Below, piece after piece: positions 4,215 through 50,705 of a stretch of 64,000 nucleotides of DNA. The notes beneath the pieces are model-generated. The model did not search any database. It worked only from the letters and a program-made list of their open reading frames with translations, and had not been told where the DNA came from. The position numbers and the translations under genes are program-made. The DNA lies in the NCBI GenBank assembly GCA_964446625.1, contig CAYUPH010000004.1, forward strand, positions 7,838-71,837, written 5' to 3'. The stretch's first letter is position 1. Every line of letters starts with the position of its first letter. Origin of the DNA: an uncultured Candidatus Saccharibacteria bacterium (GTDB taxonomy: Bacteria > Patescibacteriota > Minisyncoccia > Phycocordibacterales > CAIRYW01).

Positions 4215-5084
4215 ATGAAATATAAAGCACTACTCGCTTTGGCACTCACCCTCTCAGGAACAGGTGTTGCAGGAGCATATGATACAGGCTCATTTACAGT
4301 TGGAAGTGGAGACAAACAAGTTAAGGTTGACCTGGATGCGGCAGCAAATGTGAACCTAAAAAATGGAACTGGGGCAGGTACCGTAAATGTCACAAATACT
4401 AACGGAGGAGTAAATGTAAAAACAAATGTCTCTGTGGATGGAAAACCTTATACAGGAACAGTAAATGTTACTAATACAAATGGTACTATAAATGCAAATT
4501 ACACTGTAAATGGAGTGTCTGGCACAGTAAATGTTACTAATACAAACGGATCCCTTAAAGTTCTTCTTGATGGAAATAATCTAGACGATAACAGTCGAAG
4601 TGCTGTAATTAATCTGTCAGGAAACACAGTAGAGCTTATTAAAAGCGACGAAGACCTTTCTGCATATAACAATGTAGTAGTTAGTTCTTACTCTAACATC
4701 GAGGACGTAGAAACCGACGATAAGGAAGTGAGAGTGGTCTTTGACCAAGATGCTAAATTCCTTGGAGTTTTTGGAACAACTCTTAAGACAGAGGTTTCTG
4801 TTTCAAACGATGACAATACTGTGACAGTTCATACTCCATGGTATGGATTCCTCTTTACTAAATCTGTAAAGAAAGACGATCTTGAAAAATCACTTTCAGT
4901 AAATGTTTCAAAAAACGGATCAAATGGTAGGATTGAGGTTTCTCAAAACGGAAACTCTGGAAGCGTAAATGTACAAAATAGAGCAAAAACAGTAAGCGTC
5001 ATTACTTCAAAAGTAGGACAAACAGGCTCTGTCTCAGTTCAAAGTGGAGACAAAAAAGTAGACGTTAATCTAAGTAACTACTAG
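4215..5084 (+). CDS. secreted repetitive protein of unknown function (TVNVTNTNG repeats)
   Basis: 289 aa; signal peptide MKYKALLALALTLSGTGVAGA; five-plus copies of G-T-V-N-V-T-N-T-N-G; the second half (...GSVNVQNRAKTVSVITSKVGQTGSVSVQSGDKKVDVNLSNY) repeats the N-terminal theme (TVGSGDKQVKVDLD). Confidence 0.7.
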   Translation: MKYKALLALALTLSGTGVAGAYDTGSFTVGSGDKQVKVDLDAAANVNLKNGTGAGTVNVTNTNGGVNVKTNVSVDGKPYTGTVNVTNTNGTINANYTVNGVSGTVNVTNTNGSLKVLLDGNNLDDNSRSAVINLSGNTVELIKSDEDLSAYNNVVVSSYSNIEDVETDDKEVRVVFDQDAKFLGVFGTTLKTEVSVSNDDNTVTVHTPWYGFLFTKSVKKDDLEKSLSVNVSKNGSNGRIEVSQNGNSGSVNVQNRAKTVSVITSKVGQTGSVSVQSGDKKVDVNLSNY

Positions 5085-5130
5085 TCACCCACAAAAAAAC
5101 TCCGCTTTCGCGGAGTTTTTTTGTGGGTGA
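5085..5130. terminator. long perfect-stem bidirectional terminator between convergent genes
   Basis: tcacccacaaaaaaactccgc-tttc-gcggagtttttttgtgggtga: 21-bp inverted repeat with internal A/T runs; sits between stop of 4215..5084 (+) and stop of 5137..6261 (-). Confidence 0.8.
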
Positions 5131-5136
5131 CTTTTC

Positions 5137-6261
5137 CTAGAGTGCATCTATTGCGTCTTCTGCTCTATCTTCTGCTTCTTTTGCCAAATCCTCAGCCTCT
5201 TCATAGTCTTCGTCATCCAAAGCTTCTCTAGCGTCATCGAGGAGATCCTCTGCTTCATCTAGTAAATCCTCAGCTTCGTCCGTATCTTCATCGTCATCCT
5301 CAGCATCACTAATTTCTTGTTTTGCGTCTGAGATCGCTTCTTTTGCATCATCTATGGCATCTTCTGCATCTTCTTTATCATCTGATGCTTCTCCTATAGC
5401 GTCCTCTGCGTCATCAGCTTTGTCCTCCGCGTCCTTTGCCAAATCCTCTGCTTCATCATACTCCTCATCATCAAACCTATCCTCCGCTTCATCTAGTAAA
5501 TCCTCCGCTTCGGCAAGTAAATCCTCTGCTTCATCAACATCATCTCCGTTCCTATCTGCATTTTTGATTTTTGTTCGTACTTCGTCAATTCGATCATCAA
5601 CTTCGTTTATAAGCGTGTCAATTTCATCTTCCTGAGTTTCCCCTCCTGCATCTTGAAATGCTTCTTCTGCGATATCAAACGCATCTTCAGCTGAGCTTAT
5701 TGCCTTCGAATAGTTTCCATCAAAATACTTCTGTACTGCATTAAAAAGTTCTGCTTTTGCGTCATCAATATCATCATCTACATTGCTTCCATCATTGTCG
5801 TCAGCTTCATCCTCTGCTTCTTCAATTTGATCAATTGCTTTAGTTATAGCTTTCTCTGCTTCCCTTTGTTCGCTTGATTTTGAAGGAGTAGTAGTGACGA
5901 CAACTGGAGTGTTTGGAACTTGTACGGGGACTCCGCCAAACAGTCTCTGGTAAAACTCTCTCGAAGCGGGTCCAAAATATCCACTCGCTGGTGTAAGTTT
6001 GTTTGCAGCTTGCCACCGTGCGAGCGCTTGTTTTGTTAGTTGACCAAACTTTGTTGTTTCAAGTCCGCTGGACCCAGGGCCTGTGCTCGAAATCCTATAT
6101 CCTGAGCTATTTAAAAACTTTTGGAGACACCGAACATCTTCTCCCACGTCGTTTATATCCAGGTTTCTCGCAAATACACAGCTGGCAGCTTTCGCTGGAG
6201 CGGCACTAAGCAAGACTCCTAAAATAAACAAAGAAGAAAAAATTAATGAACTTTTTTTCAT
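5137..6261 (-). CDS. secreted protein: N-terminal peptidoglycan-binding (PG_binding_1-like) domain + long poly-acidic (D/E-rich) helical repeat region
   Basis: 374 aa; signal peptide; CLQKFLNSSGYRISSTGPGSSGLETTKFGQLTKQALARWQAANKL resembles PG-binding domain; C-terminal ~250 aa are >50% Asp/Glu with a long duplicated block DEAEDLLDEAEDxxDDEEYDEAEDLAK(D/E)AED... Confidence 0.7.
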   Translation of the reverse strand: MKKSSLIFSSLFILGVLLSAAPAKAASCVFARNLDINDVGEDVRCLQKFLNSSGYRISSTGPGSSGLETTKFGQLTKQALARWQAANKLTPASGYFGPASREFYQRLFGGVPVQVPNTPVVVTTTPSKSSEQREAEKAITKAIDQIEEAEDEADDNDGSNVDDDIDDAKAELFNAVQKYFDGNYSKAISSAEDAFDIAEEAFQDAGGETQEDEIDTLINEVDDRIDEVRTKIKNADRNGDDVDEAEDLLAEAEDLLDEAEDRFDDEEYDEAEDLAKDAEDKADDAEDAIGEASDDKEDAEDAIDDAKEAISDAKQEISDAEDDDEDTDEAEDLLDEAEDLLDDAREALDDEDYEEAEDLAKEAEDRAEDAIDAL

Positions 6262-35172: not shown

Positions 35173-35176
35173 AGGG

Positions 35177-35249
35177 AGCCAATGACCGGGATTGAACCGG
35201 TGACCTCGCCCTTACCATGGGCGTGCTCTACCAACTGAGCTACATTGGC
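35177..35249 (-). tRNA. tRNA-Thr (anticodon GGU)
   Basis: Minus-sense GCCAATG-TA-GCTC-AGTTGGTA-GAGC-A-CGCCC-AT-GGT-AA-GGGCG-AGGTC-ACCGG-TTCAATC-CCGGT-CATTGGC-T-CC; all stems perfect. Confidence 0.85.
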
Positions 35250-35283
35250 TTTCTGTATATACTAATTCAAAAACGGAGTTTTA

Positions 35284-37843: not shown

Positions 37844-38368
37844 TTATATTTCTTTTAAAATATTCTCCAACTGAAATTTAACATCTCTTGACGAATCTAT
37901 AGTATAGTGTGGCTTTTCGATTTTTTCGTATATTTTTTTTATTTTAAGATGAGCATTCCACCCCACACCGTTCCCTTTTCTAAACCTTTCTTGTACACGC
38001 TTTTTTAAAATATCGTCTGGGCAAAATACATAAATAATGAAAAATTTAGCTCCATGCTTTTTTGCGGACTGAATCACTACTTCTCGATGCACTCTCTTTG
38101 AAAAAGCACCATCAATTATGATATTTTGTCCTGAAGCTAATGCTAAATCGGTCAACAATGAAAAAACGTTATAACAAATATTTAATTCTTTAATTGTCGG
38201 AGGTTTATCTTTACCAACAAAAGAAGGGTTTTTCAAAATATTTTTTAACGTTGAATCAACAGAAAAAACTTTTGCACCGATTTTATTACCAAATAAATTG
38301 GCGGTAGTAGTTTTTCCTGCCCCCACCTGTCCACAAAATATAAATAATGATTTTTTAATTTTTGTCAT
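37844..38368 (-). CDS. P-loop NTPase, AAA_33/zeta-toxin/polynucleotide-kinase-like small kinase
   Basis: 174 aa; Walker A FCGQVGAGKTTT, Walker B-like IIIDGAF; size and motifs like zeta-toxin/gluconate-kinase-type kinases. Confidence 0.6.
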   Translation of the reverse strand: MTKIKKSLFIFCGQVGAGKTTTANLFGNKIGAKVFSVDSTLKNILKNPSFVGKDKPPTIKELNICYNVFSLLTDLALASGQNIIIDGAFSKRVHREVVIQSAKKHGAKFFIIYVFCPDDILKKRVQERFRKGNGVGWNAHLKIKKIYEKIEKPHYTIDSSRDVKFQLENILKEI

Positions 38369-38475: not shown

Positions 38476-38790
38476 TGTAAAAGAACATTTCCCGCGACTC
38501 AAAACTTTTTCGTCAAAAAGTTTTAGCCTCCGCACCGCCTCACTTCCGAGCTTTGCTAAGCTCTAACTTTACATTAAAAGTGAAGGGGCTTGGTCACTCT
38601 CGCGGATATTTTTTTCGTCCTGTGGACTCAAAAATATCTCGCTCCCTCGACCCCCATTCGTCGTCTCTGATTTTTCGTTCCTCAAAATCAGGCTTCGCGA
38701 CGACTCAGTTCAAGTCCCTCATCGCGGTAAAACAAAAGTCACCGACTCCTTTCGGAGCCGGTTCCTTTGTTTTATGCGCGAGTGAAGGGA
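38476..38790. repeat. copy B (~310 bp) of tandem module, ending in an exact 15-nt copy of the tRNA-Asp 3' end (GCGCGAGTGAAGGGA, 38776..38790)
   Basis: Shares cccgcgactcaaaactttttcgtcaaaaagttttagcctc(c/t)gcac...cctcacttccgagctttgctaagctctaacttt...aaagtgaaggggcttg with copy C. Confidence 0.75.
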
Positions 38791-39049
38791 ATCTTTCCCG
38801 CGACTCAAAACTTTTTCGTCAAAAAGTTTTAGCCTCTGCACAGCCTCACTTCCGAGCTTTGCTAAGCTCTAACTTTGGCATCAAAAGTGAAGGGGCTTGA
38901 TCCTTACAGGATCAGTACACCTTTTGGTGATTTTGTTTCGTTCCTCACAAAATCAGCTCAAAAGGTTTTCAAGTCCCTTACGCAAGTGCCCCGCACTTGC
39001 TCACTCGCACAAAATAAAAAGCCGCCAAATTTGGCGGCTTTTTATTTTG
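38791..39049. repeat. copy C of tandem module, directly abutting the genuine tRNA-Asp gene; contains an inverted tRNA-like T-arm fragment (ggttttcaagtccctta) and a terminator hairpin
   Basis: Direct tandem repeat of copy B over its first ~110 nt; a diverged homolog lies at 59517..59800. Confidence 0.75.
39014..39047 (-). terminator. terminator of the tRNA-Met/tRNA-Asp transcript (GCCGCC-aaattt-GGCGGC + T-run)
   Basis: aaaagccgccaaatttggcggctttttatttt immediately 3' of tRNA-Asp (minus sense). Confidence 0.75.
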
Positions 39050-39123
39050 CGCGAGTGAAGGGACTTGAACCCTCGGCCTTCCGCGTGACAGGCGGACGCT
39101 CTAACCAGCTGAGCTACACCCGC
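39050..39123 (-). tRNA. tRNA-Asp (anticodon GUC)
   Basis: GCGGGTG-TA-GCTC-AGCTGGTTA-GAGC-G-TCCGC-CT-GTC-AC-GCGGA-AGGCC-GAGGG-TTCAAGT-CCCTT-CACTCGC-G; discriminator G as expected for tRNA-Asp. Confidence 0.85.
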
Positions 39124-39191
39124 ATAGGTGCTTGTCCAAAGAGGTCTTTAGACAAGAGAATTATACACAAAAATAGAAAAACTCAAAATTG

Positions 39192-39264
39192 TGTCGGGAG
39201 TGGGGATTGAACCCACGACCCCAGGCTTATGAGTCCTGTGCTCTACCAACTGAGCTATCCCGAC
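39192..39264 (-). tRNA. tRNA with CAU anticodon (elongator tRNA-Met or tRNA-Ile2), unusual A31*G39 mismatch
   Basis: GTCGGGA-TA-GCTC-AGTTGGTA-GAGC-A-CAGGA-CT-CAT-AA-GCCTG-GGGTC-GTGGG-TTCAATC-CCCAC-TCCCGAC-A; G1:C72 pair argues against initiator. Confidence 0.75.
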
Positions 39265-39307: not shown

Positions 39308-39421
39308 AAAAATACAAAAAAATATATACTAGCCCCTACATACTGCGGGGTAGAGAAGTAGTATCTCGCAAGGCTCATAACCTTGAGGCCTCAGTGCAAT
39401 TCTGAGCCCCGCAACCAGTAT

Positions 39422-40102
39422 TTATATATAGAAGAACTCGTGAAAAACCTTCTTGTACATGCCGATAGCATCTTCGGCGTCTTTTTTTGTGAGCCGATAG
39501 TTTGAGCCACTGTGTGCAATCTCGTTTCGTATTTTGTGTGCTCGCCACGCTTCCGAAAGATGCGTAAAATCTGATGGCTCAATCTGCTTCAGTTTTTCTG
39601 CCACTCCCTCCCCTTCATAACCCATCTTGTCGAGCATTTCATTTAAAATAATATCGCAGTCAAGGATAGCCAGTCGCCAATCTGACTCAAGAGGAGACCT
39701 CATCTTTTCTTCTACCTTAATCCACGTTTTGTTTTTGACAGGCTCAGCTTTTAGTTTCTCTGGTCCAATAAGCGCAGCATCGTGCCCCGCATGCGAAGCG
39801 TGCCCTCCTCCATGTCCTCCGTGACCTCCATGACCGTGCAAGTTATTTAACTCATGTCTGAAGTAGAAAATGCCAAGAACGAACGCCATTGAAAGGAAAA
39901 TAGAAATTACTTGCCCTACATTGTAAACAGTAGAAAGAATTTTTGAAAATGAAGGAATGAGTGCAAAATTAAAATGCACTGCTCCAAGAAAATACTTTCC
40001 AACTGAAAGCAGAACAAAGAAAAGAAGAATCCAAAAGATAGCGTCAACAAATCCGTTTCCGCCTCCCCCTTCACCCCCTGCTGATTTTTTTTCATCTGCC
40101 AT
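39422..40102 (-). CDS. membrane-anchored HEPN-like (DUF4145-type) protein with His/Gly-rich linker
   Basis: 226 aa; Gly-rich N-terminus, 2 TM helices, HGHGGHGGHGGGHASHAGH metal-binding-like tract, C-terminal alpha-helical domain ending ...EAWRAHKIRNEIAHSGSNY = Rx4H HEPN motif. Confidence 0.6.
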   Translation of the reverse strand: MADEKKSAGGEGGGGNGFVDAIFWILLFFVLLSVGKYFLGAVHFNFALIPSFSKILSTVYNVGQVISIFLSMAFVLGIFYFRHELNNLHGHGGHGGHGGGHASHAGHDAALIGPEKLKAEPVKNKTWIKVEEKMRSPLESDWRLAILDCDIILNEMLDKMGYEGEGVAEKLKQIEPSDFTHLSEAWRAHKIRNEIAHSGSNYRLTKKDAEDAIGMYKKVFHEFFYI

Positions 40103-40130: not shown

Positions 40131-41531
40131 TTAGAGTGTTTCAAAATGATGTGCAAAATCAAGAAGAGTAAAATCGTCTTTGTATCCAGAAAGAAACTGA
40201 ATCGCAAGTGGAAGTCCCTCCTCGGTCTTGCCGCTTGGAACAGAAATCGCCGGCACTCCTGCCAAATCCGCTGGTGATGTAAACAAATCTTCTAAATACA
40301 TTGCAATTGGATCATTTGTTTTCTCTCCAATTTTAAATGCAGGCCCAACCGTTGTCGGCATTGCAATAATCTCTACTTCTGCAAATGCTTTTTCAAAATC
40401 TCTTTTGATAAGCTCTCGAATTTTTGTCGCCTTTCCATAATAAGAATCATAGTAACCTGACGAAAGGACATATGTTCCCACAAGAATTCTTCTTTTTACT
40501 TCTTTTCCAATAAGAGAGCTTCGTGTTTTCGTGTAGTCCTCAAGAAGGTCTCGTCCTTCTACTTTTTGACCGAACTTTACACCATCGTAGCGTGCCATGT
40601 TCGATGACACCTCAGCAGGAACAATGATGTAGTAAACAGGAATTGAATAATCGATATAAGGGAGAGACACATCAACAACAAGGTACCCCGCGTCTTCCAT
40701 CTTTTTTATTGAGTCCTTAAAATTTTGGAGGACCCTTGGATCAATTCCTCCTTTTTCTAGAAGCGCTTTACATACGCCAATCTTTTTTACTGCGCGTGTT
40801 TCGCTAGAGACATCTATGCTCGTAGCATCAAATCTGTCTTTTCCGCGGATAACATCGAAAACAATTTTTGCATCCTCTGCATTTTTTGCAAAAGGACCCA
40901 TATGATCAAGAGAAGATGCCATCGCCATGACTCCGTGCCGAGATACTGCACCGTAACTTCCTTTGTATCCCACAACTCCACAAAAGCTTGCTGGCTGGCG
41001 AATAGATCCTCCTGTGTCAGACCCAATTGCAAAAAGACAAAAGTCCGCAGCGAGCGCTGCCGCACTTCCTCCGCTTGATCCTCCAGCAACACGATTGGTG
41101 TCATGTGGATTTCGCACAACTCCGAAAGCAGAGTTTTCAGTCGACGCACCCATCGCAAACTCGTCCATGTTTGCTCGTCCAAGAAGTACCGCACCTGCTT
41201 CTGTAAGTTTTCTTCCTACTGTTGAGTCATATGTGGCGGTATATCCTTCAAGAATTTTAGAAGCTGAAGACGCTCTCTTGCTTTTGTATAAAAAGTTATC
41301 TTTTACAATATAAGGAATTCCAAGAAGAGGAAGTTTTTCTCCTGCTTTTATTTTTTTGTCTGCTTCCTCCGCGACAGAAAGCGCATCATCAAAAACCTCA
41401 AGAACTGCATTTAGATTTCCATTTTGCTCTGCGATTTTATCCAAAAAATACTTTGTGAGTTCTACACTCGTAAGCTCACCCTTATCTAGTTTTTCACGCG
41501 CTTCTTTGATTGTAAGATTAGAATAATCCAT
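40131..41531 (-). CDS. gatA: Glu-tRNA(Gln)/Asp-tRNA(Asn) amidotransferase subunit A
   Basis: 466 aa; amidase signature GGSSGGSAAALAA...SIRQPA. Confidence 0.95.
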   Translation of the reverse strand: MDYSNLTIKEAREKLDKGELTSVELTKYFLDKIAEQNGNLNAVLEVFDDALSVAEEADKKIKAGEKLPLLGIPYIVKDNFLYKSKRASSASKILEGYTATYDSTVGRKLTEAGAVLLGRANMDEFAMGASTENSAFGVVRNPHDTNRVAGGSSGGSAAALAADFCLFAIGSDTGGSIRQPASFCGVVGYKGSYGAVSRHGVMAMASSLDHMGPFAKNAEDAKIVFDVIRGKDRFDATSIDVSSETRAVKKIGVCKALLEKGGIDPRVLQNFKDSIKKMEDAGYLVVDVSLPYIDYSIPVYYIIVPAEVSSNMARYDGVKFGQKVEGRDLLEDYTKTRSSLIGKEVKRRILVGTYVLSSGYYDSYYGKATKIRELIKRDFEKAFAEVEIIAMPTTVGPAFKIGEKTNDPIAMYLEDLFTSPADLAGVPAISVPSGKTEEGLPLAIQFLSGYKDDFTLLDFAHHFETL

Positions 41532-41536
41532 TGTCT

Positions 41537-41821
41537 TTAGTTCAGAATTTTTTTAACTTTTACATACCCATTTTCTGTCGCTGGCGCTTCCGCAAGCAGG
41601 CTTTCACTCGTGCTTTCCAACACTCCGAGCAGAGCGTCCTCTCTGCTTACATTTCGAAGCTCTGGCACTTCCTTTCCTTCAACGTCTGTGAGTACATTAT
41701 TTATCTGTCCTACATACTCCAAAATAGCTCCAAGCTTTTCCTGCATGTCAGTTAGTTCTGCATCTTCAAACTCGAGCCGAGCCAGAGTTGCTAGTTTTTT
41801 TACCTCTTCTTTAGAAATCAT
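41537..41821 (-). CDS. gatC: Glu-tRNA(Gln) amidotransferase subunit C
   Basis: 94 aa; MISKEEVKKLATLARLEFEDAEL... typical GatC; immediately upstream of gatA. Confidence 0.85.
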   Translation of the reverse strand: MISKEEVKKLATLARLEFEDAELTDMQEKLGAILEYVGQINNVLTDVEGKEVPELRNVSREDALLGVLESTSESLLAEAPATENGYVKVKKILN

Positions 41822-41906: not shown

Positions 41907-42524
41907 ATGAAAAAGTTCCTCAGCGCTTTGCGCAAACTGGGCCCATTCCTTATGGGCGTTATTCTCGGAGTGGACATGGGCATTGGCCTCATCGTCTTCT
42001 GGGTCTTTGGTGTCATCACCAAGGACGTAAGCATCACCAATCTGCTGTTTTGCGTCTTCATGGCGCATGCACCTGATGCAGATATGCTCCTATACATGGT
42101 TCCGCCCATAAGGAGAACATTATCCCTTCCAAGTCACCGAGTGATAGGGCACCACCCTGTGCTCATAATTCCCTTCTTCGTCATCCTTGGGATGTGGGTT
42201 ACAACCATGTTCCCAATAGAGAAGTGGGTTCTTCAGGGGATCATTCTCCTGGTCACCCACTTCATACACGACATGACAAACCGGAGCGGACTTCATCTTC
42301 TGTCTCCGTTCGATTGGACGAGATGGAGATTAAGTTCGCGAGGAATTCATGTTGTGACTGAAGAGGAACTAGATGAAGAATTCGGCGATGGCACAAAGTA
42401 TGGACAAGGAGGAGTGAGTGAGTTTGAGAACCGCACTGAGCCTTTATCCATCACTGGTGTCGCACTGGTGCTCACTGGTATCACCGGCACCCTCTTCTCG
42501 TTCCTTATCTTCCAGCACCACTGA
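41907..42524 (+). CDS. membrane-bound metal-dependent hydrolase, YdjM/DUF457-like; GC-elevated (~50%)
   Basis: 205 aa; multiple TM helices with His/Asp clusters (HAPDAD, HRVIGHHP, HFIHD); isolated plus-strand gene inside a minus-strand block; possible promoter TTGACT-17-TTTTAT at 41869..41897. Confidence 0.5.
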   Translation: MKKFLSALRKLGPFLMGVILGVDMGIGLIVFWVFGVITKDVSITNLLFCVFMAHAPDADMLLYMVPPIRRTLSLPSHRVIGHHPVLIIPFFVILGMWVTTMFPIEKWVLQGIILLVTHFIHDMTNRSGLHLLSPFDWTRWRLSSRGIHVVTEEELDEEFGDGTKYGQGGVSEFENRTEPLSITGVALVLTGITGTLFSFLIFQHH

Positions 42525-44574: not shown

Positions 44575-45225
44575 CTAGTATGTGGTTTTAATCGCTCGTT
44601 CGAAACGATTTTTATTTGATTTATCGCAAGTACTATACCCTCTTGAAACGACTGTTGTCTTGTACCCTCCTGTATAGTCACCGTAACTATCTGTTTCTGG
44701 GGTTTTGAGCACCTCTACATCAAAGCATATATTTTTGTCATTGTCTGCTGTCACCTCAAATTTAGTTAAAACTGAATTTCCGCTTGCTGCGCTACTTGGG
44801 TTGTGGAGAGCCGCGTCTCCAGTTCCTTCTGTATCAACAGTAAAATATATTGGAGCTCCTGCACTGTCTGTAAGGCACGAGTAGACTGCGGGCCTGTACC
44901 CTGCCCCCTCGTCACAGTACTCAATTCCAGAAATCGCACCACTTTCATCAAAACCGGGTTGTCCAAAAAATCTACCTCTACTTTTACAAGATGTTGTTGG
45001 ATCAGATGACACCTCTCCTCCGTAATTGTAATCAAGATAGAGAGCACACTCTGTTCCGGTGTCCGCAGCATAAAACGCGTGCTGACTTTCCCGACCAGCT
45101 GACGCAAGTGTGATTTGTTTTATTGTAATTCGCAGTATCGCAAGACCAATCGCAAGAACAAGACTTGCAACAAGGGATGCAAAGAGAATCGAGAAACCTT
45201 TTTTTGTTTGAAGTGACTTAAACAT
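44575..45225 (-). CDS. type IV pilus minor pilin/pseudopilin-like protein (degenerate prepilin leader)
   Basis: 216 aa; KKGFSILFASLVASLVLAIG N-terminal hydrophobic segment without Glu5. Confidence 0.6.
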   Translation of the reverse strand: MFKSLQTKKGFSILFASLVASLVLAIGLAILRITIKQITLASAGRESQHAFYAADTGTECALYLDYNYGGEVSSDPTTSCKSRGRFFGQPGFDESGAISGIEYCDEGAGYRPAVYSCLTDSAGAPIYFTVDTEGTGDAALHNPSSAASGNSVLTKFEVTADNDKNICFDVEVLKTPETDSYGDYTGGYKTTVVSRGYSTCDKSNKNRFERAIKTTY

Positions 45226-45226
45226 A

Positions 45227-45892
45227 TTATTCTCGTAGTTGCCAATTATACAACCTCTCTTTTATAACAAACTGCCGAGTGAGACTAAATACCCCGCCTG
45301 TACTCCAGCTCACTGTCGCTTCTACTGTTGCTGAGTTTTCTGCTGAGTCAGGAATAATCTTTACTACTCTTTTAAACTTTGTACCCTCTCCGCTCGAGTA
45401 GCTATACCTAGACATTTCATCGTTCACATCAAAAGCAAGTCGAAGAGGTGAACCACATTTACTACCACTACTACAAGGAACAAGAACATCAGTGTCTCCC
45501 ACCTCAACGCTACATCCATTCGTGTCGTCGATACACGCGCGCAAAGGATCAAGCCAGCTTCCAGAAACACCCCCAGCCGTTTTCAAATGCTCAATATATG
45601 CATTGTCTCTTGTGTTTCGCACAACTTCAAGAGCTTCTTGTCCAAGGTAATAAGCAGTAATTTCGTCCCTCGCATAAAAAGCCGAAGAAAGTCCTTTTGA
45701 AGCAATTTCCATTGGACCCACAATTGCAACGACAAGAATCGAGATTGCCACAAGAGTTTCAATCAAGGTGAAACCTTTTTTTAGCGAAAGAGTGTTTTGT
45801 AAAAATTTTCTTTTCATTTTATATATCAAGTTTTCTTTGTGAGACAAATGTTTGAATATTGAACTGCGCTCTCTGTCCTCCAATAAGCGCAC
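45227..45892 (-). CDS. prepilin-type N-terminal cleavage/methylation domain minor pilin
   Basis: 221 aa; KKGFTLIETLVAISILVVAIVGP class-III signal. Confidence 0.75.
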   Translation of the reverse strand: MRLLEDRERSSIFKHLSHKENLIYKMKRKFLQNTLSLKKGFTLIETLVAISILVVAIVGPMEIASKGLSSAFYARDEITAYYLGQEALEVVRNTRDNAYIEHLKTAGGVSGSWLDPLRACIDDTNGCSVEVGDTDVLVPCSSGSKCGSPLRLAFDVNDEMSRYSYSSGEGTKFKRVVKIIPDSAENSATVEATVSWSTGGVFSLTRQFVIKERLYNWQLRE

Positions 45893-46412
45893 TTCCTCGA
45901 ATCAAGATCAGGATTTGCGGTTGGGTTTCATCTGAACTATCTGTTCCGTTTACATAAAATTCTAGCTGTGAAATTTCTACCTGTTCCGAAGTCAGGTATT
46001 GCTTTTCTTCTCCCTCCACCTTTTTATAAATCCTTTTTACTGCACTGTCATACCCGTACTCTACATGGTACTCAGTATCCTCATCCTCAACAAACTGAGC
46101 GTATTGGTTTGAAACAAAAGTAACACTGCTCCCAGGGTTTGTTGGACAATCTCCAGAGCCATTACATTCATATCGGTATCCTGTGCGGAGGTCACGAACC
46201 ATGGTTTCAATTGAAAGGTTTAGGTTATTTAAAACCGAGTGATAAGCCTGCGCTCTCTTGTTTGCGCCTACAATTGCAAGAATGGCACCGAGTGTAATCA
46301 TCATTACAAGAGCAAAAATACCGAGAGCGACAATAATCTCAATCAAAGTGAAACCTTTTTTTACTGTGAAAGTATTTTTACTCATTTTAATTTGCTGCAA
46401 CAAGGCACTCAT
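45819..46412 (-). CDS. prepilin-type minor pilin
   Basis: 197 aa; KKGFTLIEIIVALGIFALVMM. Confidence 0.75.
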   Translation of the reverse strand: MSALLQQIKMSKNTFTVKKGFTLIEIIVALGIFALVMMITLGAILAIVGANKRAQAYHSVLNNLNLSIETMVRDLRTGYRYECNGSGDCPTNPGSSVTFVSNQYAQFVEDEDTEYHVEYGYDSAVKRIYKKVEGEEKQYLTSEQVEISQLEFYVNGTDSSDETQPQILILIRGSALIGGQRAQFNIQTFVSQRKLDI

Positions 46413-47058
46413 ACGAACAGGTGTCCGCTTCAGAGCAAATTGGTAATACAGAAATTTGTCCCACCGCTGTCACAGACACTACTCGACACTTGTCACCGAG
46501 TGAGGACTGAACCATGATTCTTGCCTCCGGAAAATTCCGAGCACCTGCCTCGGGCACTCTAATTCGCGCATCCAAATCTGGTTTCTTAAACACAATATCC
46601 AGGCTTCCGGGCAATTCTGTCCAGTTTCCTTCACCGTCGTAAACTGCATATGTTTTCACTTTTTGTTCTCTTGTAAGGGAAACAGCTTCTATTTCCTCTG
46701 TTGCATCATATGAAAAGTCTAGGTTTGCTTCTTTTCCATCAAGAAATGTCTTATACCCTCCCAAATCAGTAGCGTCAAAATGCACCCCGTAAGCAAGCCC
46801 TTGTGCTGGGTCCGAAATATCTGCTTCTCTTGAACCCACTCCAAACACTTGTGCTTCTCGAATTGAAAGCGCGACATCGTAGGCTGTATTTGAAATCAAA
46901 ATATCACTTGAAAAGCGCGACTGCTTAAAAAGTGTTGCACCGAGAACAATAAAAAAGATCGCAGACACCATAAGGAGCTCAATTAGTGAAAACCCTTTAT
47001 TCTTTTCTATTTTTTTAAAAGAAAGTTTTTCTTTCATACTAAAGGAAAAAGAAATCAA
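46387..47058 (-). CDS. prepilin-type minor pilin/pseudopilin
   Basis: 223 aa; NKGFSLIELLMVSAIFFIVLG. Confidence 0.75.
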   Translation of the reverse strand: MISFSFSMKEKLSFKKIEKNKGFSLIELLMVSAIFFIVLGATLFKQSRFSSDILISNTAYDVALSIREAQVFGVGSREADISDPAQGLAYGVHFDATDLGGYKTFLDGKEANLDFSYDATEEIEAVSLTREQKVKTYAVYDGEGNWTELPGSLDIVFKKPDLDARIRVPEAGARNFPEARIMVQSSLGDKCRVVSVTAVGQISVLPICSEADTCSYECLVAAN

Positions 47059-47854
47059 TAAAATCTTTTAGTCTAAAAAAGTCAAAAGAAAAAAGAAACT
47101 GGAGAAAGATACCGAGCGCCAAGAATGGCCCAAACGGAATCTCACTCTTTAAGTGAAGAGTTGTTCTTCTTTTTAGTTTGTCATAAATCATTTTAAGTAC
47201 AGCGACCGCTGCGCCAATCCAAAAACTAAGAACGACTGCGCTCACACCTCCCACAAAGCCAAGAAGCCAGCCGGCACCGAGCGCGATTTTGGCGTCACCA
47301 AAGCCCATTGCTCTTCCCCGAGAAAGGTACCAAATCGCTGCAAATGGAAGTGCGATAATCGGCCCCGCAAGAAGATGAAGCGATCCGTAAATTGTTTTGA
47401 AGTACCACGCATGGTGAGCAAAAATCATCCAAAAGAAACTCGCACCAATAAAAAAGTACACAGGAACATCTGGAATTATTTTGTGTTTAATATCATATGA
47501 GGAAATAACAATAAGAAGCGAAAAGATAAAAGCAAAAAAAGCAAACGGAATTAAAAGCAAAATACCGCCTGCAGAAAAACAAGTATAAATAGTTGCAAAG
47601 ACAAGACCAGTGATTCCCTCTACCAAAGGGTACTCGAGAGAAATTTTTGAGCTACACCCAGTACACTTTCCTCCCTGAAAGAAAAAGCTCAGAAGAGGAA
47701 TAAGTTCAAGAGGAGCAAGCTTCTTGCCACACGTGAAGCATCCACTCCGTCCGGTGAGTCGTCGTCCTGTTTTGTACCGGAGAACAACCACATTGAGAAA
47801 ACTTCCGATAATAGTTCCAAAGACAAATACAATAAGAATTGAAAGTGTTTGCAT
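47039..47854 (-). CDS. pilD: prepilin peptidase (A24 family) with N-terminal Zn-binding CxxC pairs
   Basis: 271 aa; CFTCGKKL...CTGC; multiple TM; catalytic Asp-containing SYDIKHKIIPD / GFGDAKIA. Confidence 0.9.
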   Translation of the reverse strand: MQTLSILIVFVFGTIIGSFLNVVVLRYKTGRRLTGRSGCFTCGKKLAPLELIPLLSFFFQGGKCTGCSSKISLEYPLVEGITGLVFATIYTCFSAGGILLLIPFAFFAFIFSLLIVISSYDIKHKIIPDVPVYFFIGASFFWMIFAHHAWYFKTIYGSLHLLAGPIIALPFAAIWYLSRGRAMGFGDAKIALGAGWLLGFVGGVSAVVLSFWIGAAVAVLKMIYDKLKRRTTLHLKSEIPFGPFLALGIFLQFLFSFDFFRLKDFIDFFFL

Positions 47855-47910
47855 AACTTTATTATACCTGTCCCGTCTTGATTATTAAAGAGGAAAAGAG
47901 GTCTTAAGAG

Positions 47911-48004
47911 GGCTTTTTATCTGAGCAGACCGGAATATTTTTCTCTGGAAAAATTTCCTCCGCCATGGGCCGAGCCTCGTCGGAGTTTTCTCAGATAAAA
48001 AGCC
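47911..48004. promoter_or_regulatory. 94-nt structured intergenic element: perfect 15-nt inverted repeat GGCTTTTTATCTGAG / CTCAGATAAAAAGCC enclosing nested palindrome TTTTTCtctgGAAAAA
   Basis: Located in the 158-nt gap between a pilin gene and pilD inside the pilus operon; no T-run after it (not a simple terminator). A TATAAT box sits 9 nt before the pilD ATG. Confidence 0.5.
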
Positions 48005-48012
48005 GAGGAGTT

Positions 48013-48423
48013 CTAATTAGGTCCGGATACCTTAAAGTTATTTGTAGAGTCCCCTGTCGAACAAGACTCGGTATTCGCACTGCTCGCAAGCTCCATTGTG
48101 ACTCCAATACAATACTTTCTTGTACCACTATTAAAGGTATATCCAAAAGGTTTACTGTCCTTTGGGTCTACCGGCGCCTCTTTTAGATAGTCTGGAACAA
48201 GTTCTGAGAGAGTATTTGGCCAAGATGACGCGTCGTCGATGTGCTCCTCGTGGTAGAGGTTAAGTGCATCTTCTACATCACGGAGTTTTGCGAGCCGAAC
48301 TCCGTCACGCGTTTTTGGTTTGCTGTCTCCAAGAGAATTTATAATAACCGCCGAAAAAATTCCGATTATTCCGATTGTGACAATAAGCTCAATTAGAGTG
48401 AAACCGCGCTTCATATTTAACAC
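48013..48423 (-). CDS. type IV pilin-like protein
   Basis: 136 aa; MKRGFTLIELIVTIGIIGIFSAVI. Confidence 0.8.
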   Translation of the reverse strand: MLNMKRGFTLIELIVTIGIIGIFSAVIINSLGDSKPKTRDGVRLAKLRDVEDALNLYHEEHIDDASSWPNTLSELVPDYLKEAPVDPKDSKPFGYTFNSGTRKYCIGVTMELASSANTESCSTGDSTNNFKVSGPN

Positions 48424-48812
48424 CCTGGAACTGGAAAACTTACTCCTGTCAGTCCAATGTCTGCTGTACAGGCTGTTGTTCCATCGCTTCCTACCGCTCC
48501 GTTTGTTGCCGTAAGGTTTACTGCAAAGTTTGTTTCTGGTCCGCTACAGTTTAGTAAAATCGTATCTTCGTTAAAAGCATATGTTGTCGCGTTTGAAGGA
48601 AAGTCAGCAGATGAAAGAGTGCTTCCGCTGTCGCATTTTGCAATAAGTGCTGGAGTAAGACCATCTACCTCAGATCTAAAAGCAGCTCGAAGTGCCTTAT
48701 TTCGCTGAGAGGATACACTCGCCGTAACCACTGCCGCAAAAATACCAACAATTGCAATCACAACCAGAAGTTCAATTAAAGTAAAACCAAATGAGAAATT
48801 ATTTTTTTTCAT
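48417..48812 (-). CDS. type IV pilin-like protein (start reassigned to internal Met: MKKNNFSFGFTLIELLVV...)
   Basis: Track ORF extends to 48896 through the upstream terminator; the class-III leader begins at Met29 (48812). Confidence 0.75.
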   Translation of the reverse strand: MKKNNFSFGFTLIELLVVIAIVGIFAAVVTASVSSQRNKALRAAFRSEVDGLTPALIAKCDSGSTLSSADFPSNATTYAFNEDTILLNCSGPETNFAVNLTATNGAVGSDGTTACTADIGLTGVSFPVPGC

Positions 48813-48880
48813 AAAATTAGTAAAATTATTTTTAAAAGACCTTTTTATCATATCAAATAGATAGTAAAAGTTCTCCCCAA

Positions 48881-48911
48881 ACAAAAAAACCGCCAAAGGG
48901 CGGTTTTTTTG
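48881..48911 (-). terminator. strong symmetric terminator/attenuator immediately after the first pilin gene (CCGCC-aaag-GGCGG flanked by A9 and T8)
   Basis: aaaaaaaccgccaaagggcggttttttt 20 nt downstream of the stop of 48931..49311. Confidence 0.75.
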
Positions 48912-48930
48912 TTTCTTTAGATAGAAGTAC

Positions 48931-49311
48931 TTAGCAACCTGTTGTATAAGTTACCCCTGTCTGTGTTACAGTAGCAACACATGTTGTTCCTCCTGAAGTT
49001 GCAGCACCGTTACTTGCTGTAATTGCAACTGAAAATGTACCGTCAGTATCACAGTCAGAATCAGCTCCGGATGGGAATGCTGTGAGTGCATCATAACTGC
49101 TTCCTCCAGGAAAATCTGAAGTCGCCAAATCTGCAGAATCACATTTTGTGATTAGAGATGGTACAAGAGAAGCTGTCTCTGCCTTGAAAGCTGCTACTTT
49201 AGCCTTTGTTCTTGTGGGACCTAGAGAAACTAGAACCACGCCAGAAAGGATTCCGATAATAGCAATCACAACGAGAAGCTCGATGAGTGTAAAACCTTTT
49301 TTTGTTGACAT
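48931..49311 (-). CDS. pilA: type IV major pilin candidate
   Basis: 126 aa; MSTKKGFTLIELLVVIAIIGILSGVV; followed by attenuator-like terminator (typical of major pilin genes). Confidence 0.75.
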   Translation of the reverse strand: MSTKKGFTLIELLVVIAIIGILSGVVLVSLGPTRTKAKVAAFKAETASLVPSLITKCDSADLATSDFPGGSSYDALTAFPSGADSDCDTDGTFSVAITASNGAATSGGTTCVATVTQTGVTYTTGC

Positions 49312-49499
49312 GAATTAATTTGTTAACTTTTTTCTAATAATAATCAATTGATTATGCCTTCTTTGTTTTTAAGTCCCCCAGAAGACGGAGAAAAGACTAG
49401 ATATTCGACCGCTTAATTTATTTAAAGCTTTAATTTAATTATAACAAAGTAAGGGGCGCCTCAAAGCGCCCCTGTGGAAAACTCTTTGTCTTCCCCTTC

Positions 49500-50705
49500 T
49501 TAAATTGATGAAGAAATGTTGTAGATAGGAATAAGAACCGACGCAAGAAGGAATGCAACACCAAGACCAAGGGACACAATCATCACCGGCTCGATAAGGT
49601 CAACAAGAGTATCCACTGCGTTCACAACCTCTCTTTGGTAGAACTTTGCAAGTGTTGAAAGAATATTTCCAAGCTCTCCTGTCTCTTCTCCAATTCGCGC
49701 CATCTGCACCATAATAGAAGGAATTTCTGGATAACGAGAGAACGCATCTGAAAGCGAACTACCTCCTTTTACAAGTTCAAGAGATTCTTTGAGAACATCT
49801 TCGTAAATTTTGTTGTCTACCACTTCTGCTGTTAGTTCAAGTACTTTTACCATTGGAATTCCTGATACAAGCATTGTATTCATGTTATCCGCAATTCGTG
49901 AGAGGTAAAGTCTTCGGAAAAGCGTTCCTACATATGGAATTCCAAGTTTTACTTCTGCCATTACCTTGCTTCCCTTCTCTCCTCTCGATATGTACCACAC
50001 ATACACCCCAGCAGCGAGAACAACCGCGAGGAAAATAAATCCGTAATCTTTTAGAAAATCACTGATACCAATAACTACTCGTGTGTAAATCGGTATCTCC
50101 TGTCCTGATTCTTTGATAATGACTGTGATCTTTGGAATTACAACTGTGAGCATAAGCGACATCACCACAATAAAAGTAAGTACCACAAACGCTGGGTAGA
50201 TGAGTGCGTTTCGTGCCTTACTTGTCACTGCGTAGTTTCGGTCAAGGTAGTCTGCGAGATACATAAATGTCTCATCGAGTTTTCCTGATTCTTCTCCTGC
50301 CCTAACCATGTTGACATAAAAAGGAGAAAATACTTTCGGATGCTTAGCCATCGCTTTGGAGATAGTCGCTCCTCCTTGAATATCGTCAGCAATTTCTGTT
50401 AGTTTTCTTCCGAGAACTTTGTTTTCAGTTTCTGTTGAGAGGAGTCTAAAAATTCGCAGTGCCGATACTTGGGCAGAGAAAAGAGTTGCGACTTGTCTTG
50501 AGAGGATAACAACATCTTTGTTTGAGACGTGGTCAAAAATCTTGAGGTTTCGATTGAGGCCTCCTCCCTCTTCTGCAAGAAAAATATTTTCAATTACAAA
50601 ACCTCGCTTTTGAAGCGCGTTAATAGCGGCGTCCTGACTTATTGCGTCAATTGTTCCTGAAACCTCCTGACTTGTTTCATTGATGGCCTTGTAATTAAAA
50701 AGCAT
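49500..50705 (-). CDS. pilC: type IV pilus assembly platform protein PilC (T2SS-F domain x2)
   Basis: 401 aa; duplicated GspF domains, 3 TM. Confidence 0.9.
   Translation of the reverse strand: MLFNYKAINETSQEVSGTIDAISQDAAINALQKRGFVIENIFLAEEGGGLNRNLKIFDHVSNKDVVILSRQVATLFSAQVSALRIFRLLSTETENKVLGRKLTEIADDIQGGATISKAMAKHPKVFSPFYVNMVRAGEESGKLDETFMYLADYLDRNYAVTSKARNALIYPAFVVLTFIVVMSLMLTVVIPKITVIIKESGQEIPIYTRVVIGISDFLKDYGFIFLAVVLAAGVYVWYISRGEKGSKVMAEVKLGIPYVGTLFRRLYLSRIADNMNTMLVSGIPMVKVLELTAEVVDNKIYEDVLKESLELVKGGSSLSDAFSRYPEIPSIMVQMARIGEETGELGNILSTLAKFYQREVVNAVDTLVDLIEPVMIVSLGLGVAFLLASVLIPIYNISSSI

Follow-up and report, generated by a model that had tools for sequence, protein, structure and literature searches.

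In prokaryotes, nearly all known HEPN RNases belong to conflict systems, namely toxin-antitoxin modules, abortive infection and CRISPR effectors. Membrane-associated bacterial HEPN proteins were predicted in 2013 in three architectures, and the same survey lists fusions of DUF4145 to transmembrane (TM) segments, including 'TM and SH3 (Firmicutes)', and suggests that cues at the cell surface govern the cutting of RNA at the membrane (Anantharaman, Makarova, Burroughs, Koonin & Aravind, PMC3710099). Here we describe X, a gene at 39422..40102 (minus strand) in a 64,000-nucleotide stretch of contig CAYUPH010000004.1 (assembly GCA_964446625.1), hereafter the window. It has an ATG start and encodes a membrane-tethered HEPN-like protein of 226 residues. 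The preliminary description of X, made from the letters of the window, considered a membrane-anchored HEPN domain unusual. Three such groups and the DUF4145-TM/SH3 fusions are already on record (PMC3710099), so the kind of protein is known at the level of prediction. What appears to be new is a distinct family that Pfam, NCBIfam and PADLOC do not capture, confined to Paceibacteria-type Patescibacteria, with housekeeping-like conservation and a fixed place between gatCA and a tRNA cluster.

X shares with the membrane HEPN proteins of the 2013 survey an N-terminal TM region, a C-terminal Rx4H HEPN domain predicted to be cytoplasmic and, in its long relatives, SH3 domains; the same control of RNA cleavage by surface signals can be proposed. 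It differs from them in falling below the DUF4145 threshold and in its distribution, since theirs is sporadic whereas X is a syntenic core gene of the gatCA-tRNA locus in Patescibacteria-type genomes. The first of the three groups joins a WP-signature TM segment to DUF4145; X has two TM helices, no WP dipeptide in its sequence and a poorly conserved N-terminal half. Unlike the HEPN-MNT type II toxins (Shewanella SO_3166, PDB 5yep; 7ae2, 8xdj), X has no adjacent MNT gene, is held at the membrane, is not mobile and is conserved in the manner of a housekeeping gene. Ire1 and the predicted C6orf70 family (HEPN/KEN) also hold a HEPN-type RNase domain at the cytosolic face by a TM segment, and a domain on the other side senses conditions and controls the RNase through oligomerisation, which could apply to X by analogy only. 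X lacks a kinase domain, is far smaller, has a minimal external part and shows no detectable specific sequence relationship to them. RNase Y (HD/KH) and RNase E (S1/DNase I-like) are membrane-anchored, metal-dependent housekeeping endoribonucleases; they share with X the concept of a core endoribonuclease at the cytoplasmic membrane, but their folds and chemistries are unrelated to it. Within a limited library of literature on HEPN domains in Parcubacteria, Paceibacteria and the candidate phyla radiation (CPR), and on GatCAB in the CPR, we found no description of the X family.

X is a core gene of the gatC-gatA locus

With one genome scanned per species (GTDB r232), relatives of X turned up in at least 589 species genomes. 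The best 80 of these loci come from 80 different assemblies, all metagenome-assembled genomes (MAGs), whose labels are Paceibacterota, Parcubacteria, Taylor-, Campbell-, Nomura- or Zambryskibacteria, Patescibacteria or generic. In the best 80 loci and six more, gatC and gatA lie directly upstream of X on the same strand almost without exception, and nearly all of 82 loci, taken from different species, have X in this place. The spacing is tight: the median distance between the gatA stop codon and the first ATG in X is 21 nt, with at most 100 nt in 72 of 78 loci and at most 200 nt in 76. The gatC-gatA junction is equally tight (150 nt or less in 66/70 loci). The ligA-gatC junction is looser, at 150 nt or less in 40 of 62 loci and broken by more than 500 nt in 14. 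In the window, gatC (41537..41821, minus strand) is followed by gatA (40131..41531, minus strand), the amidase subunit gene of the tRNA-dependent amidotransferase, which ends 28 nt upstream of X. The C-terminal domain of X is about 50% identical between loci, as against 54% for GatA, 57% for LigA and 39% for GatC. The tight coupling to gatA, the conserved tRNA cluster described below, the wide presence and a conservation like that of GatA and LigA together make X a conserved core gene of Paceibacteria-type Patescibacteria, the last gene of a gatC-gatA-X unit to which it is tied in nearly every genome sampled. Many MAG records labelled 'uncultured Candidatus Saccharibacteria bacterium' (L008, L009 and L011 among them) have the Paceibacteria-type ligA-gatC-gatA-X-tRNA synteny, and this label is probably a generic placeholder.

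The preliminary description had placed X directly beside tRNA-Met and tRNA-Asp genes, which is correct, and had taken the position as a sign of accessory or defence origin, which the comparison does not support, since the tRNA cluster is itself ancestral synteny. Directly downstream of X the window holds tRNA-Met(CAT) (39344..39417, plus strand), 4 nt from the X stop, a second tRNA-Met(CAT) (39191..39264, minus strand) and tRNA-Asp(GTC) (39049..39123, minus strand); tRNA-Thr(GGT) (35174..35250) lies about 3.8 kb beyond tRNA-Asp. The usual order is X, tRNA-Met(CAT), tRNA-Met(CAT), tRNA-Asp(GTC), tRNA-Thr(GGT), tRNA-Thr(CGT), with variable gene inserts between the tRNAs in many Paceibacteria. 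The window keeps this order with its first tRNA-Met inverted; in most genomes that gene is on the strand of X. Among the 57 loci with sufficient downstream DNA for tRNA counts, the first downstream tRNA is a tRNA-Met within 300 nt of the X stop in 35 (30 on the same strand as X), and a tRNA-Met lies within 1.5 kb downstream in 43. Conservation of the neighbourhood extends on both sides of X, to gatC-gatA upstream and the tRNA cluster downstream. The first tRNA-Met is also inverted in a minority of other loci (L001, L043, L046, L074, L048, L079, L086), which suggests recurrent local inversion. In the window its acceptor stem begins with U1-A72.

A scar array was also reported beside X. The array is real, but it lies beyond tRNA-Asp (38483-39074) and does not adjoin X, from which it is separated by three tRNA genes. 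It contains partial tRNA-Asp 3' ends (AGTGAAGGG...) at 38579-38599, 38765-38801 and 38886-38906, and an 88-nt repeat, 95% identical between its copies at 38483-38570 and 38789-38876, spaced 306 nt. Such a structure could result from repeated integration into, and excision from, tRNA-Asp. The variable region that separates tRNA-Asp from tRNA-Thr also contains, beside the array, a zeta-toxin/AAA_33-like kinase gene (37844-38368, minus strand), which may be cargo of an integrated element.

A gene of a defence or accessory island would be expected to vary in presence and location and to associate with mobile elements; X shows none of this in the genomes sampled. Searches with its domain found nothing in 50,697 phage records or in 72,556 plasmids, although these collections hold few, if any, CPR elements and the result is weak evidence, and IMG/VR contains no true relative. 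No family of PADLOC-DB v2 matched X at E<=10. Four annotated neighbourhoods that we inspected contain no MNT, restriction-modification or Abi partner. Nor does the locus resemble a HEPN-MNT module: X is flanked by gatA on its upstream side and by tRNAs or unrelated genes on the other, with no nucleotidyltransferase family among the annotated neighbours. The proposed accessory or defence origin is not supported, given a fixed locus in at least 589 species genomes, a conserved tRNA cluster and the absence of phage, plasmid and PADLOC matches in the collections searched.

Architecture and conservation of the X protein

The layout read from the open-reading frame (ORF) in the preliminary description, with two TM helices, a His/Gly tract and a C-terminal helical domain carrying an Rx4H motif (RNEIAH), is borne out by hydropathy and by an AlphaFold2 model. 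A short, charged N-terminal tail (residues 1-16, MADEKKSAGGEGGGGN; 40055..40102, minus strand, as for all parts of X) is predicted to be cytoplasmic, and its MA[DE]EKK start (MADEKKS... in X) is common to many homologs. TM helix 1 spans residues 17-41 in the model (39980..40054; Kyte-Doolittle core 17-35) and TM helix 2 residues 52-90 (39833..39949; core 62-80). Between them is a short loop, residues 42-51 (39950..39979), predicted to be extracytoplasmic. The tract HGHGGHGGHGGGHASHAGH (residues 89-107; 39782..39838), 19 residues with 8 His, sits in a disordered juxtamembrane linker (about 91-124), and residues 94-111 have a predicted local distance difference test score (pLDDT) below 50. The C-terminal domain, residues 125-226 (39425..39730), is modelled at pLDDT 96-98 as helices 125-135, 139-160 (core 2), 167-173 (a short insert), 182-201 (core 3) and 206-222 (core 4).

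Selection has acted on this domain. A search of 5.8 billion protein clusters returned 91 clusters of homologs, all of which lack both a Pfam domain and an informative name; where organism labels are present, they are of Paceibacterota/Parcubacteria type, plus one 'Nanoarchaeia'. In an alignment of 47 sequences only hydrophobicity is conserved in the N-terminal half, whereas conservation is strong over the last ~100 residues. There the invariant positions are W127, D141, W142, D150, L153, G164, L171, K172, A185, W186, A188, H189, R192, N193, I195, A196, H197, V219 and E222, and E148 in helix 139-160 is at least 90% conserved. A bare Rx4H motif is weak evidence, given that R....H arises in 30% of shuffles of the X protein and RN...H in 1.3%. 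Conservation lifts it above chance: RNxIAH is present in all 91 clusters, each time 38 residues from the C-terminus, and the extended motif AH[KR]xRNx[IVL]AH in 87, the four exceptions deviating at the flanks only. An exhaustive HMMER search with the domain profile over 1.84 billion representatives, in clusters at 50% identity, found 2,983 clusters at E<=1e-3, 2,020 at <=1e-10 and 735 at <=1e-30. In 150 of the 150 matches listed the domain is at or within ~40 residues of the C-terminus, in proteins of 128-696 residues.

The His/Gly tract does not share this conservation. Linkers in the family range from 19 to 73 residues, and those with five or more His occur in only 45 of 91 clusters, so a His-rich linker is not a trait of the whole family. 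Since about half of the family lacks the tract, we dropped it as the key functional element. It may give metal sensitivity in one sub-lineage while being dispensable for the family.

The C-terminal domain and the HEPN superfamily

A HEPN domain, as defined in the 2013 survey, has an Rx4-6H motif where core helix 3 ends, in which the Arg is usually followed by N, D or H, a conserved acidic residue in helix 2, close to the motif, and an insert between helices 2 and 3 (PMC3710099). The X model is a four-helix up-down bundle with the motif and the insert so placed, and with a candidate for the acidic residue. Helix 139-160, which carries D150 (39653..39655), leads through a loop (161-181) with a short helix to helix 182-201, whose C-terminal half holds R192-N-E-I-A-H197 (39512..39529), the predicted RNase active-site motif, with N193 as the polar residue after the Arg; helix 206-222 follows. 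By its place in core helix 2, D150 would correspond to the second conserved residue of the HEPN active site.

Weak profile matches across the family also converge on the HEPN clan. Among 47 members, sub-threshold matches were found to RiboL-PSP (PF18735) in 14 (best 8.8e-4), HEPN_Swt1 (PF18731) in 13, DUF4145 (PF13643) in 6 (best 2.7e-3, for P0052), Cthe_2314 in 2 and pEK499_p136 in 1. The HEPN region of Cas13e was matched by 23 of 59 C-terminal domains, and by X itself at E=0.03. The matches to DUF4145, HEPN_Swt1 and HEPN_RiboL-PSP are collinear and near full length, but all fall below gathering thresholds and none stands out. The top Foldseek match for both the full-length and the domain-only model is a HEPN protein (1wty), at a non-significant E of 0.3-0.6. 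The conserved motif, the modelled fold and the profile matches are each modest evidence, but they converge, and membership of the C-terminal domain in the HEPN superfamily holds up. The assignment to DUF4145 or an Abi-like family made in the preliminary description does not: a hidden Markov model match to DUF4145 was found, but at 13.7 bits (E=0.065) for X and 18.1 bits for the best member, as against a cut-off of 23.1. X is best treated as a separate family, currently unmodelled in the HEPN clan.

Two viral contigs in IMG/VR (L088 5521-6243 and L089 2599-3321) encode a 240-residue protein with the sequence AHKIRNRIAHSG, near-identical to the family motif HKxRNxIAH and otherwise unrelated to X. 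We rejected it as a bridge to a named HEPN family, as the similarity covers 22 columns around the motif and the protein has no Pfam match. It may be another unannotated HEPN protein.

Membrane topology and SH3 insertions

Across the family, the 15 residues past the last TM helix contain 2.2-3.65 Lys+Arg, compared with 0.62 on the side of the loop, a charge bias that by the positive-inside rule places the C-terminal domain in the cytoplasm. A second indication comes from long relatives, in which a bacterial SH3 domain lies between the two TM helices (P0179, SH3_3, E=6.6e-11, 42.7 bits against a cut-off of 27; P0213, 27.2 bits). Some members (P0127, P0179, P0181, P0124 and L040) reach 450-700 residues and carry one or several SH3b/Tudor-like domains at this position, which in X is the short loop; the long ORF of L040 (5408-7498) begins 2 nt past gatA. 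SH3b domains are typically extracytoplasmic, cell-wall-binding modules, and their presence argues that the loop is outside and the HEPN domain inside. Both indications predict an N-in, C-in topology with the HEPN domain of X facing the cytoplasm. Only one clear TM segment was scored in 20 of the 91 clusters.

Possible functions of X

We favour, with moderate confidence, a reading in which X is a lineage-specific core protein of the inner membrane with a cytoplasmic HEPN domain bearing RNxxxH, and most likely a membrane endoribonuclease with a housekeeping or regulatory role. In the 2013 survey, HEPN families act as RNases where the motif is retained, and domains that only bind have lost it (PMC3710099). 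From this rule, together with the fold, the invariant R, N and H and the helix-2 Asp, we infer by analogy that X is an active RNase. X would be a bitopic (N-in, C-in) protein whose C-terminal ~100 residues cleave RNA, independently of metal, on the cytoplasmic side of the membrane. It would probably act as a dimer that pairs two Rx4H motifs, as HEPN toxins, Csm6 and RNase L do. X would be the final cistron in the transcript of a gatC-gatA-X operon, upstream of the tRNA-Met/Met/Asp/Thr cluster, and this arrangement leads us to favour a housekeeping or regulatory role over an anti-phage one. Several HEPN and related nucleases, such as PrrC and RloC, prefer tRNA (PMC3710099). Combined with the gatCA-tRNA position of X, this preference prompts the guess, and only a guess, that the substrate is tRNA- or translation-linked and that X serves RNA processing or turnover. 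The extracytoplasmic loop, or the SH3b domains of longer relatives, could let conditions at the envelope set the activity of the RNase, in a form of outside-in control.

X has the catalytic signature of a HEPN RNase and behaves as a housekeeping gene, with a degree of conservation similar to that of GatA and DNA ligase across hundreds of species of a major uncultivated lineage. The RNA metabolism of ultra-small bacteria is largely unknown, and X is small enough for direct biochemistry. If it is an active RNase, it is a concrete candidate for membrane-localised RNA processing or envelope-to-translation signalling in these cells. Should it be inactive, it would keep its value as a lineage marker and as a conserved protein that deserves annotation.

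Several points weigh against the favoured reading. The sequence models on their own are insufficient to establish HEPN identity: the DUF4145 score of X is short of the cut-off, as given above, and none of the HEPN-clan matches in the family reached the threshold of a Pfam or other curated model. The family profile found no HEPN chain among PDB sequences, and Foldseek searches of the PDB with the full-length and domain-only models returned nothing at E<=0.001. (The PDB sequence matches from single-sequence and profile searches, such as MukF and designed proteins, were discarded as spurious or due to TM composition.) Synteny can persist as a block in reduced genomes without a functional link, and the block around X also includes ligA and pilin genes. 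Finally, an RNase reading gives no account of how X, which has no partner, stays harmless.

A more specific version of the endoribonuclease reading is possible, though we advance it only tentatively. X would be a membrane HEPN RNase of Paceibacteria that is coexpressed with GatCA and has a housekeeping or regulatory role in translation, acting on tRNAs or their precursors and gated from outside through its loop or SH3b domains. Candidate substrates would be the adjacent tRNA-Met/Asp/Thr transcripts or the tRNAs handled by the amidotransferase. If this version were true, X would be a bacterial, minimal analogue of Ire1-type signalling and, to our knowledge, the first core, non-conflict HEPN RNase in bacteria.

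The alternative that survives best is a HEPN domain without catalysis, serving at the membrane as a module that binds or scaffolds tRNA, a nucleotide or GatCA/GatCAB. There is precedent for such a role, as HEPN domains fused to nucleotidyltransferases act as binding or scaffolding modules and do not cut RNA. We nevertheless think it rather unlikely for X, in whose family R, N and H are invariant in 91 of 91 clusters alongside the helix-2 aspartate, whereas non-catalytic families have lost Rx4-6H entirely or in part (PMC3710099).

Far less probable is a defence or abortive-infection toxin, a membrane HEPN effector acquired with an island at a tRNA hotspot. Most prokaryotic HEPN families do belong to conflict systems (PMC3710099), and the surroundings lend the idea some colour, with tRNA-Asp 3' fragments ~400 bp away and a zeta-toxin-like kinase gene in the variable tRNA-Asp/tRNA-Thr region. 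However, X lies on the conserved side of the tRNAs and the scars on the far side. Its recurrence at one locus across at least 589 species genomes, its median gap to gatA of 21 nt, the conserved tRNA cluster beside it, its conservation on a par with GatA and LigA, and the lack of PADLOC, phage, plasmid and viral relatives and of MNT, restriction-modification or Abi partners in the four inspected neighbourhoods all speak against this reading.

We also consider it highly improbable that X is a metal-handling membrane protein, a sensor, chaperone or transporter accessory whose His/Gly tract binds Ni, Zn or Co. The 8 His of its 19-residue tract and the His-rich linkers of 45 of 91 homologs invite this reading, and a Zn ion near the active site in one Csx1 structure (PMC3710099) makes metal modulation of an RNase conceivable. 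Against it, half of the family has no such linker and linker length varies from 19 to 73 residues; the tract is predicted to be disordered, the HEPN domain is the selected part of X, and two poorly conserved TM helices make no transporter. A generic helical bundle with a chance Rx4H, which sub-threshold profile matches, non-significant Foldseek matches and the frequency of R....H in shuffles (30%) would allow, is the least credible of these alternatives, and we give it almost no weight.

Other genes near X

A YdjM-family (PF04307) membrane hydrolase gene (41907..42524, plus strand) lies between ligA and gatC in the window, on the strand opposite to gatC; it was not at this position in three other neighbourhoods inspected. 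To see whether X takes the place of gatB in a gatCAB operon, we searched with a GatB probe, which matches PDB GatB at E=5e-244. It gave no gatB match in the 64-kb window, nor in the ~7 kb around X across 86 loci, so that gatB must lie elsewhere or be absent. In L001 (ERZ25039521:contig_9631, 4550-5972) gatA is represented by two ORFs of 257 and 214 residues over which the tblastn match is continuous; the split is a frameshift or an assembly error. Upstream of ligA, a conserved series of genes for type IV pilin-like (N_methyl) proteins, together with prepilin peptidase and T2SS-F genes, occurs in the window (44575-50705) and in L087 (1-5528), and the pilin-like gene run upstream of ligA is also syntenic in distant relatives.
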